Assembly (NCBI RefSeq): GCF_017744155.1
Contig: NZ_JAGHQT010000003.1
Location: 1 to 64,000, forward strand
DNA: 64,000 nucleotides
Reading direction: 5' to 3'
Source of the DNA: Endozoicomonas sp. G2_1
GTDB lineage: Bacteria > Pseudomonadota > Gammaproteobacteria > Enterobacterales > Alteromonadaceae
Below are positions 16,301 to 39,701 of the stretch, one piece after another. Position 1 is the first letter of the stretch; each line of letters starts with the position of its first letter. The position numbers and the translations under genes were made by a program. A model generated the notes under the pieces. That model saw only the letters and a program-made list of their open reading frames with translations. It ran no database searches and was not told the DNA's origin.

Positions 16301-16525
16301 TTAGATTTTGATAATATCTCCGTTTGCTAAAGTGATCTCAGTGCTAAAGCTACCACCGGCAGCTTCTACAAACTCTTTCAGCTTTAATAGGTTGGTATCG
16401 CCAACCGTTTTATTGCCCATTTTGCTGACCGCAGATTTATTGACATTGAGCATAAGTGCGATCACGTCTAGTTTGGTTTCTTCAGTATTGAGCTCTTTCA
16501 CTCGAGTATTGATACCCATATTCAT
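16301..16525 (-). CDS. Small HTH DNA-binding protein (XRE-like); start ATG 16525 (track ORF opens at TTG 16555)
   Basis: HTH signature LDVIALMLNVNKSAVSKM; AGGT RBS 6 nt upstream of ATG 16525. Confidence 0.5.
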   Translation of the reverse strand: MNMGINTRVKELNTEETKLDVIALMLNVNKSAVSKMGNKTVGDTNLLKLKEFVEAAGGSFSTEITLANGDIIKI

Positions 16526-16756
16526 TGCTTTACCTATATCTTTTCTTGGGCACAAAAAAGCCCAGTTGATAAACTGGGCTGCCGTCAGGAATATATTTAG
16601 GTTGCCCAGAAGAGGATCTCCTAGGACTGGGTCTCAGGAAATCTATGTCAGAATGTGATACCAAAAATATATTCGTGAAAAATTCATTACTAAAAGCCTT
16701 GTGTTAGCGATTGTTTAACTGAGTACAAGTTTATCGATTATTATCGTAGGAATAAA

Positions 16757-16783
16757 CTAAAAGCGGTTTCCGCTATGGAAACC
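16757..16783 (-). terminator. Rho-independent terminator after rtcR
   Basis: Minus strand: GGTTTCC-atagc-GGAAACC followed by GCTTTT. Confidence 0.6.
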
Positions 16784-16814
16784 TTGCTTTGTATGCCGCT
16801 TTATTATTGATTAA

Positions 16815-18413
16815 CTATCCGTTCAATTCGCTCCATTTTAGCTCAAATTTTGCGAGATATTTTTGCAAACGAGTAGAGTCGTTCTGCTTGGCTTTGAGCG
16901 TTCTACTAACGTTGAATAACTCTCGACCAGCCGACGCCATACTATTGTGTTGGCTACATACCGAGAGAACGTAGTCTAACTGCTTCGCGTCGAAGCTATC
17001 GAGTTGGGCAATTTGCTGTTTAGACAAGTATCGCGATAAATGTTGGTTTAGTGTTTGAGTGCATGTTGGCGTCCACAATCGCTTGAGGCGTTCAATTTCT
17101 TCTTGAACATCATCTGTAGTGATTCGAGATGAATCAGCGAGCGTGCACAACCGGGTGATGGCTGAGCTAAGATCCCTAAAGTTGCCCGACCATAGTGCTT
17201 CACTTGAGCAAGCGAACCGAACAAATGCGTTATGCGCTTCTTTGTTAAATCTCACTCGTTCGCCGTTGTTTTGACTGAATAGCTCTATTTCATAGTCGAT
17301 ATTGGCGGGAATATCTTCTTTGCGATCTTTTAGTGCCGGAAGTTGATAAGTCCACAGGTTGATACGTGCCAGTAGGTCTTCGCGAAAGGCGCCACGAGCA
17401 ATTTCTTCGGCTAAGTTTTTATTGGTGCCGGCGATTAGTTGGAAGTTACTTGATACTAAATGGTCACTACCAACTGGGTGAAAGCTTTTGTTTTCGATAG
17501 CGTGTAGCAGCATTGCTTGCTCTTCTATACCGAGTTCGCCAATTTCATCGAGAAATAGCACGCCGTTGTTGGCGGCAAGTAAAAAACCATCGCGACTCTT
17601 TTGAGCGCCAGTAAAAGCGCCTTTGGTATGACCGAACAATGCCGCCATTGCATTTTCGCCTTTTAGGGTTGCACAGTTCACCGATACCAATGGGCCAGTT
17701 AGCATCGCGCGCTTCTTTTTTAGCTGATAAATACGGCCGGCTAACTGGCTTTTTCCGGCTCCGGTTGGCCCAGTCAGTAAAATAGGATCTTGAGAGCGAA
17801 TCGCCACTTTTTCAATTTGGCTGATCAGTTTGTTAAACGCTTTGTTCTCGGTTTTTATACCACCTTTTAAAAAGTCTTTACCGGCTTGGTGTTCAACATC
17901 AAATCGAGTGGCAAGTTGATCGTATTTAGATAAATCTAAATCGATAATTTGGGTTTTACCAACCGACTTGTTTTTATTGGTTTTGTCTGGCGAACTTTGA
18001 ATTAAGCGGCCGGGGAAATGTCGGCTTTCAGTGAGTAAGTAACTACATATTTGCACTACGTGAGTGCCGGTAGTGATGTGAAACAGATAGTCATTCTCGT
18101 CTGCATCAAAACTTTGCTGTTGGCACCAGTCAAAAAGTTTTGCGTAAACTTCCTCGAAGTCCCAAGGGTCGTTAAAGTTAACGGTGTGAAGTATCACTTC
18201 TGTTTCTGGTGAGATCGACTCGATATCAACCGCGACATTGTTGGCTAAACGGCTGCTGTGATTGTCGTGCAGCATGTGGAGCTGATCAATAATTAAGTCT
18301 TCTTGGCTACATAAACTGATATTGGGTCGCCATCTTGCCCAGCGATCGACCCTTTTGCCAACAAAGTCTAACTGAGTACCTATCAAGCTGACCGCGACTG
18401 TTTTCCTTCTCAC
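16815..18413 (-). CDS. rtcR: Sigma-54-dependent transcriptional activator RtcR (CARF-like N-domain plus AAA+ plus HTH)
   Basis: 532 aa like E. coli RtcR; AAA+ motifs GPTGAGKS, GAFTGA, LFLDEIGEL; divergent from rtcB/rtcA operon. Confidence 0.85.
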   Translation of the reverse strand: MRRKTVAVSLIGTQLDFVGKRVDRWARWRPNISLCSQEDLIIDQLHMLHDNHSSRLANNVAVDIESISPETEVILHTVNFNDPWDFEEVYAKLFDWCQQQSFDADENDYLFHITTGTHVVQICSYLLTESRHFPGRLIQSSPDKTNKNKSVGKTQIIDLDLSKYDQLATRFDVEHQAGKDFLKGGIKTENKAFNKLISQIEKVAIRSQDPILLTGPTGAGKSQLAGRIYQLKKKRAMLTGPLVSVNCATLKGENAMAALFGHTKGAFTGAQKSRDGFLLAANNGVLFLDEIGELGIEEQAMLLHAIENKSFHPVGSDHLVSSNFQLIAGTNKNLAEEIARGAFREDLLARINLWTYQLPALKDRKEDIPANIDYEIELFSQNNGERVRFNKEAHNAFVRFACSSEALWSGNFRDLSSAITRLCTLADSSRITTDDVQEEIERLKRLWTPTCTQTLNQHLSRYLSKQQIAQLDSFDAKQLDYVLSVCSQHNSMASAGRELFNVSRTLKAKQNDSTRLQKYLAKFELKWSELNG

Positions 18414-18426
18414 TATTTGTTTCCAA

Positions 18427-18458
18427 AAAGATATTTATATATCTAATAAGATATCTTT
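18427..18458. promoter_or_regulatory. Nested AT-rich palindromes (AAGATAT…ATATCTT; GATAT-ttat-ATATC) upstream of sigma-54 promoter; candidate enhancer/IHF/RtcR UAS
   Basis: Direct sequence symmetry ~110 bp upstream of TGGCAC element. Confidence 0.3.
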
Positions 18459-18564
18459 TGTTGTTTTTTCTCGCAAGCTGACTTTAAGTATAAAAAGATA
18501 AAAACAAGATTTAATATATAAAAATCATCATCTTATATTTTTATTTACGAGGTTTTTCTTGGTT

Positions 18565-38327: not shown

Positions 38328-38345
38328 GATGCTCTCTTTATTGTT

Positions 38346-38504
38346 TGTGTCCCTATGACATTATTTAATTTAGCAGGGTGATAATATTTATGCAATACAA
38401 ATTTGTGTCTTTATGACACTTTCCTGTTTATTGCCATTTTTAGTGGTGTTAACAAGCTGAGCAATTGCAATTTTTCGCATATTTCTATATTGTGTCTTAT
38501 AGAC
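38346..38504. promoter_or_regulatory. Three copies of inverted repeat GTGTC-N5-GACA(C/T) (38346-38361, 38404-38419, 38489-38504) in the prs-nadV / nrtR divergent region; candidate NrtR operators
   Basis: tgtgtccctatgacat, tgtgtctttatgacac, tgtgtcttatagacat read directly. Confidence 0.45.
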
Positions 38505-38522
38505 ATAATTGAGTTGAGCAGC

Positions 38523-39221
38523 ATGACTAAGCCATACAATATTAATGATTTCAAAAATCCACTATTCACTGTTGATAGTGTGTTATTCACTGTAAAAGAA
38601 GGGCGGCTTCAGGTGTTGATGGTAAGAAGGGCAAATGAACCTTTTATTCATCAATGGGGTTTGCCGGGAGGTTTTGTTGACGTTGATATAGACCAATCAA
38701 CAGATGAGACAGCATTGAGAAAACTCAAGGAAAAAACCAGTGTTGCACCACAGTATTTAGAGCAGTTACAAGCTTTTTCTAGCGCTTACAGAGACCCCAG
38801 AGGATTTAGCGTTACGTTGGTTTACTACGCACTAGTCGCTGAGCAAGAGGTTAGCTGTCACATTGATACTGTGGATGATGCAAAGTGGGTTGATCTTGAA
38901 GAATTAGATGACCTTGCCGTTGCTTTCGATCACCGTTTTATTATTGAGCAAGCACAACATCGTTTACAACAAAAAGCGCTGTATTCAATGGTGCCCGTTT
39001 ATTGTTTGCCTGAGCTATTTACTATTGCACAGCTCAAGTCTGTGATCGAAGTGATTATTGGCAAAGAGATTCAGCGCAAGAGCTTAATCCGCAGGATAGA
39101 TGCATCAGAAATGTTTGAAGCTCTTGATGAAAAAGTGAAATCAGGAGGTCGTTTAGCCCAGGTGTATAAAGTTAAGCCTGATGTTGATATTGCCCACTTT
39201 GAACGAAACTTGAGTATGTAG
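38523..39221 (+). CDS. nrtR: NrtR-type regulator (Nudix domain plus C-terminal winged helix); start probably 38523 (track ORF opens at 38403 inside operator repeat)
   Basis: Nudix box GLPGGFVDVDIDQSTDETALRKLKEKT; ~100-aa C-terminal domain; divergent to prs-nadV. Confidence 0.6.
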   Translation: MTKPYNINDFKNPLFTVDSVLFTVKEGRLQVLMVRRANEPFIHQWGLPGGFVDVDIDQSTDETALRKLKEKTSVAPQYLEQLQAFSSAYRDPRGFSVTLVYYALVAEQEVSCHIDTVDDAKWVDLEELDDLAVAFDHRFIIEQAQHRLQQKALYSMVPVYCLPELFTIAQLKSVIEVIIGKEIQRKSLIRRIDASEMFEALDEKVKSGGRLAQVYKVKPDVDIAHFERNLSM

Positions 39222-39231
39222 TGGCTAATTT

Positions 39232-39675
39232 ATGATTGTATATATTGATATGGATGATGTTTTGTGTGATTTCTCTGGGGCGTTTGATAGCGCACTTAGC
39301 GTTAATCCAGAGATCACTTATCCGCAATCTCAATATGGTTTTTACGCTAACTTAACACCTCTGACAGGGGCAATTGAAGCACTTATCGACTTACTGAGTT
39401 CTGAAAAATTCACCCCTTACATTCTTACAGCACCTTCAATATTAAACCCTTTATGCTATACCGAAAAACGTATTTGGGTAGAGAAGCACTTGGGTTTAGC
39501 GTTTGTTGAACGACTGATTATCAGCCCAGACAAAAGCCTACTTTGCGGCGATGTCTTAATTGATGACCGAACTCATGGTCATGGTCAGGATTGTTTTCAG
39601 GGCGAATTAATACAGTTTGGCTCAACTGAGTATCCTGACTGGGAGAGTGTTTTGAACTACCTCAAATCAAAATAA
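39232..39675 (+). CDS. HAD-family 5'(3')-deoxyribonucleotidase-like protein
   Basis: DMDDVLCDF (DxDxV) HAD motif I; small size. Confidence 0.55.
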   Translation: MIVYIDMDDVLCDFSGAFDSALSVNPEITYPQSQYGFYANLTPLTGAIEALIDLLSSEKFTPYILTAPSILNPLCYTEKRIWVEKHLGLAFVERLIISPDKSLLCGDVLIDDRTHGHGQDCFQGELIQFGSTEYPDWESVLNYLKSK

Positions 39676-39701
39676 CCTGACTTGAGGCAGCGTGATGATG
39701 T

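Follow-up and report, generated by a model that had tools for sequence, protein, structure and literature searches.

The first 64,000 nucleotides of contig NZ_JAGHQT010000003.1 of Endozoicomonas sp. G2_1, hereafter the window, carry a cluster of RNA-repair and nicotinamide adenine dinucleotide (NAD) genes between 16.8 and 39.7 kb. We favour, with moderate confidence, the reading that these genes form three separately controlled chromosomal units that jointly keep translation-apparatus RNA in repair when endonucleases have damaged it, and that have stayed linked within a clade of marine Gammaproteobacteria. The three control regions are an RtcR/sigma54 region ahead of an Rtc operon (unit 1), a sigma70-type promoter with a leader holding an upstream open reading frame (uORF) ahead of rtcB2 (unit 2), and NrtR operators ahead of an NAD-salvage operon (unit 3). 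The grouping is probably functional, because the combination recurs in other marine bacteria. All of the enzyme families involved are known, and the novelty lies in their recurrent physical union.

Read from left to right, the cluster opens with rtcR on the minus strand, followed on the plus strand by a sigma54 promoter, three tRNA-like genes and the genes for SPFH, RtcB, RtcA, RlaP, an HD protein and a nucleotidyltransferase (NTase). The middle of the cluster, between the NTase and HD-Pnk, holds DUF4132/DUF7737, a 131-aa open reading frame (ORF) and an alpha/beta hydrolase. The minus strand, read from 38327 to 28666, carries prs, nadV, NADAR, kptA, DUF4291, rtcB2, prfH, a proteasome-like gene, LMW-PTP (hereafter PTP), an RNA ligase and HD-Pnk, with spacers of 382 nt between DUF4291 and rtcB2 and of 160 nt between prfH and the proteasome-like gene; nrtR and an NT5C-type nucleotidase gene diverge from prs.

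An initial annotation of this DNA had described the region as a coordinated island of six contiguous RNA-repair and NAD modules. Every gene that it named was found in its place by the ORF list, Pfam, NCBIfam and PDB sequence searches (16.8-39.7 kb), and the module identities agree. Profile matches likewise bear out the presence of both sealing chemistries, namely an RtcB-type route for 3'-phosphate and 5'-hydroxyl ends (3'-P/5'-OH) and an ATP-dependent ligase with Pnk for 5'-P/3'-OH ends, together with a Tpt1/KptA gene. The architecture was less accurately drawn. Only five modules had been listed, and two of these, the ligase/HD-Pnk and RtcB2-PrfH modules, are one operon in relatives, because PrfH continues there straight into PTP-ligase-HD-Pnk. 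The modules do share one region, but 24.7-28.6 kb, which had been skipped, holds the non-repair DUF4132/DUF7737, 131-aa and hydrolase genes. Finally, at least three separate control regions were found rather than a single one, against the notion of a coordinated island.

Recurrence of the cluster in related bacteria

To evaluate recurrence, HD-Pnk, which lies at the centre of the cluster, was used as the anchor, and 87 loci were compared with 25 window proteins by tblastn. These loci came from a genome-collection scan (two loci), a protein search, context look-ups and a metagenome scan, such that the comparative evidence derives mostly from metagenome contigs and look-ups. Where HD-Pnk is at least 60% identical to the window protein and the flank extends for at least 3 kb, the convergent SPFH-Rtc operon lies downstream in nine of 13 loci (7/11 non-redundant), compared with one of 45 loci below 60% identity. 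With flanks of at least 3.5 kb, RtcB2-PrfH lies upstream of HD-Pnk in all seven loci at or above this identity, versus 3/37 below it.

Four loci from different sources illustrate the arrangement and show that the aggregation proposed in the initial annotation is real. First, in Flocculibacter collagenilyticus the series RtcB2-PrfH-PTP-ligase-HD-Pnk converges on RlaP-RtcA-RtcB-SPFH, with RtcR beyond. Second, Vibrio coralliilyticus has the same arrangement minus PTP and RtcA. Third, the metagenome contig L007 carries prs-nadV-NADAR-KptA-Macro-RtcB2-PrfH-PTP-ligase-HD-Pnk, convergent on 203aa-HD-RlaP-PolyA_pol-RtcA-RtcB-SPFH and then RtcR, which is the complete set in window order, packed more tightly. 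Fourth, the contig L090, read from its KptA side, has NT5C-NrtR and then Band_7-308aa-prs-nadV-NADAR-KptA-Macro-RtcB2-PrfH, convergent on SpoU-...-RlaP-PolyA_pol-RtcA; after PrfH, two small ORFs and a third RtcB (13953-15074) stand in place of ligase/HD-Pnk. The set including the NAD module was therefore found in two further contigs, L007 and L090. The third RtcB of L090 is about 30% identical to each window RtcB.

Within the linked loci the proteins have diverged to 63-71% identity for HD-Pnk, 60-68% for KptA and 88-92% for RtcB. The flanks differ between genera, and therefore the linkage has outlived considerable divergence and relocation. No homologue of DUF4132, the 131-aa ORF, the hydrolase, the proteasome-like BPH protein, DUF4291 or NT5C was detected by tblastn in any of the 87 HD-Pnk-anchored loci. 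As the comparison indicates, the clustering is recurrent and not due to chance.

The RtcR-controlled unit and its non-coding RNAs

The regulator gene of unit 1, rtcR (16815-18413, minus strand), encodes an RtcR/CARF-type domain (PF06956, 266 bits) and a sigma54-activator AAA+ domain (PF00158, 161 bits); homologues 64-80% identical lie divergent from the SPFH operon in L004, L005, L007, L015 and L016 (tblastn). At about 18565-18580 on the plus strand a motif match identifies a candidate sigma54-type promoter, TGGCAC-N5-CTTG (TGGCACatcacTTGA), which is unchanged in seven of seven aligned loci and whose -12 element reads TTGA or TTGT, not TTGC. It is followed, ahead of the tRNA-like genes, by a conserved transcript leader of about 75 nt (18590-18667, plus strand) with long invariant blocks in the seven-locus alignment. 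A small hairpin, GTGATTC...GTCAC, occurs within this leader.

Three tandem tRNA-like genes come next (18668-18738, 18740-18808 and 18807-18882, plus strand), as recognized by ARAGORN and by the Rfam tRNA model at 50 and 66 bits. Their predicted folds show D and T arms of canonical form and acceptor stems rich in AU (ATTTAAG with CTTAAAT); the anticodon loops are irregular, and no anticodon is conserved. The spacer between RtcR and SPFH is held by seven loci, counting the near-identical V. coralliilyticus loci L005, L006 and L008 as one, and every sequence-distinct locus that holds it has one to three tRNA-like copies at the same position and on the SPFH strand: three in the window, L007 and L009, two in L005 (as in L006 and L008), L015 and L016, and one in L004. 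A profile built from this family left the true tRNAs of the window unmatched at E<1e-3. An assignment of these RNAs to YrlA was ruled out, with 34 bits against an Rfam gathering score of 69.

Between the tRNA-like genes and SPFH, RNAalifold on seven sequences predicts a rod-like hairpin of 124 nt and 44 pairs (18897-19020, plus strand). Double compensatory changes occur at 18 of the 44 pairs, versus 7.4 +/- 1.8 in shuffled alignments (0/500 shuffles), and at only three to seven pairs when the partners are slid along each other; across the seven sequences 90.6% of cells are paired. The hairpin matches no Rfam family. In the literature consulted on rtc loci, we found no description of this hairpin, nor of the varying number of tandem tRNA-like copies. 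Burroughs and Aravind are said to have described, in 2016, SPFH/Band-7 proteins with 'a novel tRNA-like molecule' and a modular 'syntax' of such systems.

The protein-coding part of the operon lies entirely on the plus strand. It begins with SPFH/Band-7 (19061-20230; PF01145, 99 bits), whose homologues are 70-85% identical and occupy the same position in seven loci (tblastn), and continues with the 3'-P/5'-OH RNA ligase RtcB, or RtcB1 (20314-21543; PF01139, 423 bits), 88-92% identical across related loci (tblastn), the RNA 3'-phosphate cyclase RtcA (21553-22593; PF01137, 257 bits) and the nucleotidyltransferase RlaP (22611-23414; PF10127, 292 bits), whose family adds one or two nucleoside monophosphates onto the 3'-OH ends of damaged RNA (PMC12776372). 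Two smaller genes complete the operon. The first encodes an HD-domain phosphohydrolase of 147 aa (23557-24000; PF01966, 49.6 bits) and the second a Pol-beta superfamily NTase of 203 aa (24028-24639). The NTase is 78-82% identical in L007 and L014, where the HD protein is kept beside it (tblastn), and has no PDB sequence match.

Both small proteins had been named more specifically in the initial annotation. The 'MNT' label is supported by a plain GS-x10-DxD motif in the translation (GSVSTGKIKRTSDID), but the Pfam matches of this protein, to DUF4269 and Polbeta, are both below threshold. For the 'CCA-type HD' protein, the HD domain stands, but the link to CCA-adding enzymes is one weak NCBIfam match (E=5.6e-5). 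CCA-end repair, which had also been claimed, is not directly encoded, as no window ORF matches the PolyA_pol (PF01743) CCA-adding enzyme in Pfam searches. Relatives do have a PolyA_pol/CCA-adding-type gene between RtcA and RlaP (L007, 11470-12747; L090, 18042-19311), which the window lacks.

In Salmonella, the CARF domain of RtcR binds 5' tRNA halves that end in a cyclic phosphate (PMC7790460). By analogy, tRNA fragments with 2',3'-cyclic phosphate ends would be sensed by RtcR and would cause the sigma54 promoter to fire. RtcB would then seal 3'-P/5'-OH ends, RtcA would cyclise 3'-phosphates, RlaP would rebuild one or two nucleotides at damaged 3' ends, and trimming and extension of ends would probably fall to the HD protein and NTase. 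Together, SPFH and these RNAs probably scaffold a ribonucleoprotein (RNP), as Ro and Y RNA do in the Salmonella rsr-yrlBA-rtcBA system; alternatively, the tRNA-like RNAs could act as decoys or sentinels for anticodon nucleases. A Ro60/TROVE domain was not found by Pfam in any window ORF searched. In its predicted working the SPFH/RNA module resembles the Ro/Y-RNA module, but it falls outside that family.

The RtcB2-PrfH-ligase-HD-Pnk unit and its leader

Unit 2 lies on the minus strand and begins with RtcB2, the PrfH-associated RtcB ligase (ORF 32470-33657; NF007153, 560 bits versus a cut-off of 407). Alignment of its conserved start, ATGG(G/A)CAAA, places the start at 33636. The 3' end of rtcB2 overlaps the start of the co-directional prfH by 4 nt (32470-32473). 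PrfH (31847-32473; TIGR03072, 259 bits versus a cut-off of 167) is a release-factor homologue in which the GGQ motif is present. In relatives PrfH runs directly into PTP-ligase-HD-Pnk, with co-directional ORFs that abut or overlap.

The phosphatase (30759-31106, minus strand) is a short protein of the LMW-PTP/ArsC fold (PF01451, 34 bits) with a CX5R(S) motif, CSRNKWRS, and by tblastn it stands after PrfH and before the ligase in L001, L004, L007, L009-L013, L016 and L017. The ATP-dependent RNA ligase (29938-30681, minus strand; PF09414, 106 bits) has the nucleotidyl-transferase motif KMDG and no PDB sequence match; its homologues are 210-219 aa long, and its true start is probably at 30567. 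Only 9 nt separate it from HD-Pnk, which it adjoins in 15 loci of the clade with at least 60% identity and in 39 below. HD-Pnk itself (28666-29928, minus strand) combines an HD phosphoesterase (PF01966) with a P-loop polynucleotide 5'-kinase (PF13671, 83 bits). Its kinase domain matches the Clostridium thermocellum Pnkp kinase structures 4gp6 and 4jst in a PDB sequence search, and an alignment of 30 homologues shows no change in the HD and GSGKST motifs.

In the window, a further gene stands between prfH and the phosphatase gene (31099-31686, minus strand). The initial annotation had called its product HslV-like, and a relationship with the proteasome holds, but the family is BPH: PDB matches are to 5ovu (E=1.8e-40) and 5ovs (E=1.8e-32), whereas HslV gives only E=0.13. 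The N-terminus reads MTVIT, with Thr directly after the initiator Met, and the last 8 nt of the gene are shared with the beginning of the phosphatase gene. As no homologue was found by tblastn in any related locus among the 87, BPH, a family of unknown function, may represent a one-off local insertion into an RNA-repair operon. The spacer between prfH and BPH contains mini-ORFs of 11 and 13 codons (31784-31819 and 31719-31760, minus strand), each with a GGAGAG Shine-Dalgarno sequence, and in relatives this position is taken by small ORFs, 71 to 129 aa long, that are unrelated.

The rtcB2 leader (33637-33946, minus strand) was delineated from alignments, folds and energies as a promoter, a uORF and alternative helices. 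The sigma70-like promoter has a -35 element TTGCTT (33946-33941) and a -10 element TATTAT (33923-33918), 17 nt apart, and the uORF has 13 codons and a strong Shine-Dalgarno sequence (33857-33816). Helix A:B pairs the Shine-Dalgarno region of the uORF with the uORF interior (CTGTAGAGGA with TCCTTTGCAG) in ten of ten aligned sequences, and its energy is predicted at -13 to -16 kcal/mol for 11/11 sequences when E. coli is added to these ten. A hypothetical alternative, helix B:C, overlaps it and would pair the uORF interior (33833-33822) with a segment about 100 nt downstream (33704-33693), GCAGGTCTT with AAGACCTGC, which in the window takes the form GCAGATCTTTTT with AAAAAGATCTGC.

A leader of like design precedes rtcB2 in E. 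coli (L088, 2660-2930) and is present in L090, as well as in L001, L004, L005, L007, L009, L018, L020, L022 and L027. Across leader-bearing loci the uORF spans 13-15 codons, and its frame relative to a conserved TTTGCAG differs in E. coli and in L020/L022 from that of the other sequences. Because nucleotides are kept while the frame differs between groups, conservation applies to the RNA and to there being a uORF, and not to the peptide. The leader is probably a translation-sensing RNA switch. A pairing that would sequester the rtcB2 ribosome-binding site was considered and dropped, as it is not consistently conserved. The leader has no Rfam match, and no mention of it was found in the work consulted on the rtcB2-prfH module. 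In the E. coli strain examined, what we take, by eye, to be an ERIC-type repeat is inserted after the conserved leader and ahead of the rtcB2 start codon (L088, 2800-2900). No convincing terminator was found between DUF4291 and the rtcB2 leader or between prfH and BPH, and read-through at both places is possible.

RtcB2-PrfH has been shown in E. coli to repair colicin E3 damage (PMC9304027, PMC9223846). In unit 2, PrfH would free ribosomes stalled by cleavage of the decoding centre and RtcB2 would reseal 16S rRNA, while HD-Pnk and the ATP-dependent ligase would offer a 5'-P/3'-OH route for ends that RtcB cannot join. The leader probably ties expression to ribosome stalling at the uORF.

The NrtR-controlled NAD-salvage and KptA unit

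The operon of unit 3, on the minus strand, starts with two genes of NAD salvage identified by Pfam, prs (37479-38327), a dedicated supply of phosphoribosyl pyrophosphate, and nadV (35873-37489), which converts nicotinamide to nicotinamide mononucleotide; their homologues in L007, L090 and L091 are 65-71% (Prs) and 84-86% (NadV) identical. These are followed by the ADP-ribose-processing hydrolase NADAR (35273-35836; PF08719, 185 bits), by the NAD-dependent RNA 2'-phosphotransferase KptA/Tpt1 (34714-35280; PF01885, 156 bits) and by DUF4291 (34040-34681; PF14124, 198 bits). The KptA translation contains the motifs LRH, RANQGHS and RHHVHL, matched by eye to the catalytic Arg-His-Arg-Arg residues (PMC6097658). 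Throughout the relatives KptA is the constant partner of prs-nadV, whereas DUF4291 is swapped for Macro or ARH; in L007 and L090 it is a Macro-domain gene that takes its position.

On the plus strand, nrtR (38523-39221) encodes a Nudix and winged-helix repressor (PF00293, PF21906) and is followed by the NT5C-family nucleotidase gene (39232-39675; Pfam). The 195-bp spacer between prs and nrtR contains three candidate NrtR-type operators, TGTC-N5-GACA (38348-38360, 38406-38418 and 38493-38505), and this motif has no other match in the 64 kb. All three agree with the published operator core, a GT-N7-AC palindrome, in a system where ADP-ribose frees NrtR from prs-nadV DNA (PMC2330246). In L090, L091 and L092, too, the NrtR-NT5C pair adjoins an operon of prs-nadV or KptA. 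Next to it, in L090 (4570-6515) and L092 (16256-18198), lie a different, shorter Band_7 gene and an ORF of about 308 aa; therefore, SPFH proteins associate with the NAD module too.

In the mechanism proposed for unit 3, ADP-ribose would de-repress the NrtR-controlled prs-nadV-NADAR-kptA-DUF4291 operon, such that NAD supply would track NAD use. KptA would spend one NAD for each 2'-phosphate that it strips from a repair junction or end, NadV and Prs would recycle the nicotinamide, and the by-product ADP-ribose would be handled by NADAR with Macro, ARH or DUF4291.

Proposed joint maintenance of translation-apparatus RNA and competing explanations

From the gene arrangement we infer functional coupling of the modules, including that of Tpt1 with a dedicated NAD supply. 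Several observations weigh against this view. First, a contig that is 96.6% identical over the ligase gene's 3' end and HD-Pnk diverges 49 nt past the HD-Pnk stop codon and continues with an amidohydrolase, a transporter, GGT and a TonB receptor; homology ends just past HD-Pnk, and therefore the two convergent operons do not adjoin each other in the closest available relative. Nor did tblastn detect the Rtc operon at that position in P. luteoviolacea, L012 or L017. Second, the units are under different regulators, so that they need not respond in concert, and the NAD/KptA operon stands on its own in L091 and L092. Third, the Runella ligase sealed no tested substrate (PMC6097658), NADAR reverses base ADP-ribosylation while phosphate-linked ADP-ribose is not processed (PMC11833690), and the link to KptA supposes a ligase that makes or needs a 2'-phosphate junction. 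Fourth, helix B:C of the rtcB2 leader shows one compensatory pair and failed the shuffle test (138/500 shuffles).

Some of these points also fit a rival view, in which the modules are functionally independent, each of use by itself and without interplay at the pathway level, and stress or conflict genes have simply been pooled in one variable region, as in the defence-island effect. The regulators are indeed separate, and each module can be found alone: ligase-HD-Pnk is solitary in most of the distant loci, E. coli has RtcB2-PrfH by itself, and L091 has prs-nadV-KptA. Moreover, the convergent operons meet at a variable junction, which has taken up unrelated cargo here, and it is at this junction that the closest relative is split. 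However, pooling does not readily explain why order and orientation are kept at 60-90% protein identity in different genera and flanks, nor the strong clade-specific enrichment of the Rtc and RtcB2-PrfH linkages. In relatives, RtcB2-PrfH-PTP-ligase-HD-Pnk is a tight co-directional operon, and in two loci (L007 and L090) a Macro-domain gene sits directly after KptA and ahead of RtcB2. We therefore regard independence as unlikely, although it deserves serious consideration.

A bolder proposal than joint maintenance by separate units is that of one integrated translation-apparatus repair regulon with three damage sensors: RtcR-CARF for broken tRNA, the uORF leader of rtcB2 for stalled or damaged ribosomes, and NrtR, through ADP-ribose, for NAD consumption. 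KptA would complete a Trl1-like ligation, in which HD-Pnk and the ligase leave a 2'-phosphate junction, with its own NAD loop, and SPFH with the tRNA-like and rod RNAs would form a Ro/Y-RNA-like or vault-like RNP that presents damaged RNA to RtcB. It is tempting to speculate along these lines, since this reading, if true, would provide a long-missing physiological role for bacterial Tpt1 and a new bacterial RNP, but we hold it to be doubtful.

A different role can be imagined for unit 3, in which KptA-NADAR-DUF4291 would be an ADP-ribosylation writer/eraser set that counters nucleic-acid toxins or acts as such, with NAD salvage offsetting depletion. The erasing activity of NADAR on bases fits this idea, and so do the ability of Tpt1/KptA enzymes to ADP-ribosylate phosphate ends (PMC11833690), the predicted ADP-ribosyltransferase-like fold of DUF4291 (PMC12522546) and the use of NadV by phages to restore NAD (PMC9503650). 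NADAR also matches a candidate defence-cluster model of PADLOC (E=1.7e-43), which otherwise returned one weak NTase match only. Nevertheless, such a set would hardly be expected to exchange DUF4291 for Macro or ARH while KptA stays constant with prs-nadV, a toxin-like partner or immunity pair is not evident, and the KptA catalytic motifs are as in bona fide 2'-phosphotransferases (PMC6097658), all of which makes this explanation improbable.

Finally, that the 23 kb are a horizontally acquired mobile genomic island integrated beside tRNA-Tyr and tRNA-Met can be dismissed as very improbable, since, although these two tRNA genes lie at its left edge (16041-16290) and the composite occupies different chromosomal sites in different genera, Pfam detects no integrase, transposase or conjugation gene in the window, only a sub-threshold TniQ match falls outside the cluster, no att-like direct repeats of tRNA ends flank it, GC content (0.35-0.48 across the cluster) is similar in the flanks, the junction is absent from the 96.6%-identical contig, and plasmid-borne HD-Pnk homologues are at most 42% identical. 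The island of the initial annotation, taken in this mobile sense, is thereby not upheld.

Comparison with known systems

With these alternatives weighed, the joint-maintenance reading can be set beside systems already described. Unit 1 recalls the Salmonella rsr-yrlBA-rtcBA locus in its divergent CARF-type RtcR, its sigma54 promoter, its leading tRNA-like non-coding RNAs, a putative scaffold ORF, RtcB and RtcA. It differs in that SPFH/Band-7 replaces Ro/TROVE, in having one to three full tRNA-like cloverleaves and a separate 124-nt rod hairpin, and in its additional RlaP, HD and NTase genes. SPFH within an RtcR-controlled locus with RlaP is also known elsewhere, with PaFlo8 in the rtc locus of P. 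aeruginosa and RlaP between RtcB and RtcA in Pseudomonas (PMC13086221, PMC12776372); unlike such SPFH-containing rtc loci, the one described here is linked on the chromosome with modules for RtcB2-PrfH, ligase/HD-Pnk and NAD.

Unit 2 shares with E. coli rtcB2-prfH the equivalog-level matches of both proteins, the overlapping ORFs and the conserved uORF leader. The E. coli pair is followed by a metal-dependent hydrolase, whereas here and in relatives LMW-PTP, the ATP-dependent ligase and HD-Pnk follow, an extension that is absent from the accretions listed in the main text of PMC6514570. The Runella slithyformis Tpt1-MTase/HIT-ligase-HD-Pnk cluster also has the ligase directly upstream of HD-Pnk, with Tpt1 genetically linked (PMC6097658), and in Deinococcus DRB0100-DRB0098, ligase-PARG-HD-Pnk, the ligase-HD-Pnk pair is linked to an ADP-ribose hydrolase (PMC11833690). 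In contrast with both, the present cluster is without MTase/HIT or PARG, KptA belongs to an NrtR NAD-salvage operon, and RtcB2-PrfH stands between KptA and the ligase.

Unit 3, in turn, corresponds to the NrtR-prs-nadV regulon of Shewanella and Acinetobacter, sharing the Nudix/winged-helix architecture of NrtR, the pairing of nadV with a dedicated prs paralogue and GT-N7-AC palindromes in tandem (PMC2330246), but here the operon is extended by NADAR, KptA and DUF4291, abuts RNA-repair genes and has NT5C as the constant NrtR partner. Units 2 and 3 together invite comparison with the Trl1-Tpt1 pathway of yeast and plants, in that they supply a phosphoesterase and a kinase that heal ends, an ATP-dependent ligase and an NAD-dependent 2'-phosphotransferase, joined in relatives by a Macro-domain enzyme, and could replay that pathway including by-product disposal. 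The Macro gene after KptA in L007 and L090 would fit the disposal step known from yeast. The differences are that the activities reside on separate polypeptides and that the phosphoesterase is of the HD and not the 2H type; the parallel supposes a ligase that requires or leaves a 2'-phosphate.

The initial annotation had also stated that the assemblage was not described as a unit. This stands for the whole composite, for the RtcB2-PrfH-PTP-ligase-HD-Pnk operon and for its link to an NrtR-controlled NAD-salvage operon, none of which was found described in the literature consulted on the component systems. It does not extend to the component groupings, as SPFH in rtc loci, RtcB-PrfH, the clustering of ligase, HD-Pnk and Tpt1 in Runella, and NrtR-prs-nadV are already published. 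We consider the useful new leads to be the five-gene operon, KptA in the adjoining NrtR regulon, the uORF leader of rtcB2 and the covarying rod hairpin.

These leads bear on several questions. With an ADP-ribose-controlled NAD operon directly upstream of RtcB2-PrfH and ligase/HD-Pnk, the locus bears on the role of bacterial Tpt1/KptA; it bears equally on why cells retain both RtcB-type and ATP-dependent sealing, and on the part played by SPFH with tRNA-like and rod RNAs in rtc operons. Since E. coli has the leader too and is easy to work with genetically, the switching of rtcB2-prfH can be approached there. Should the modules cooperate, the cluster would offer a compact model of layered tRNA and rRNA repair after ribotoxin attack.

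Inserted genes and flanking regions

The genes between the convergent operons are DUF4132/DUF7737 (24713-27316, minus strand; Pfam), the 131-aa ORF (27327-27722, minus strand) and the alpha/beta hydrolase (27890-28588, plus strand; Pfam). The first two form a two-gene unit that recurs, with 67% (131-aa ORF) and 77% (DUF4132) identity, in L093 (1887-4895), and that lies elsewhere among unrelated genes, including on a contig from the same sample as L007. The junction of the convergent operons is a variable spot that took up cargo, and the contexts of DUF4132 elsewhere rule it out as a part of the repair system. DUF4132, the 131-aa ORF and the hydrolase, for which no homologue was detected in the anchored loci, are local insertions, and BPH is probably one as well.

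Beyond the right end of the cluster, a Tn7-like element was ruled out, as the TniQ match is sub-threshold, lies 3 kb past the cluster and has metabolic neighbours. This match belongs to a 357-aa ORF within 42698-47000, a stretch with a GC content of 0.33-0.37 in which the neighbouring genes encode a Crp-type regulator, methylmalonyl-CoA mutase and SDR. At the opposite end, positions 1-459 of the window contain the end of an rRNA operon (23S 3' end, 5S and tRNA-Tyr), such that the tRNA-Tyr that lies with tRNA-Met at the left edge of the cluster (ARAGORN) is the second in the window. Further downstream, 48904-57793 encodes DUF6039, an AMP-binding enzyme and a large protein with acyltransferase/NMO domains, which suggests a cluster of lipid or polyketide type.

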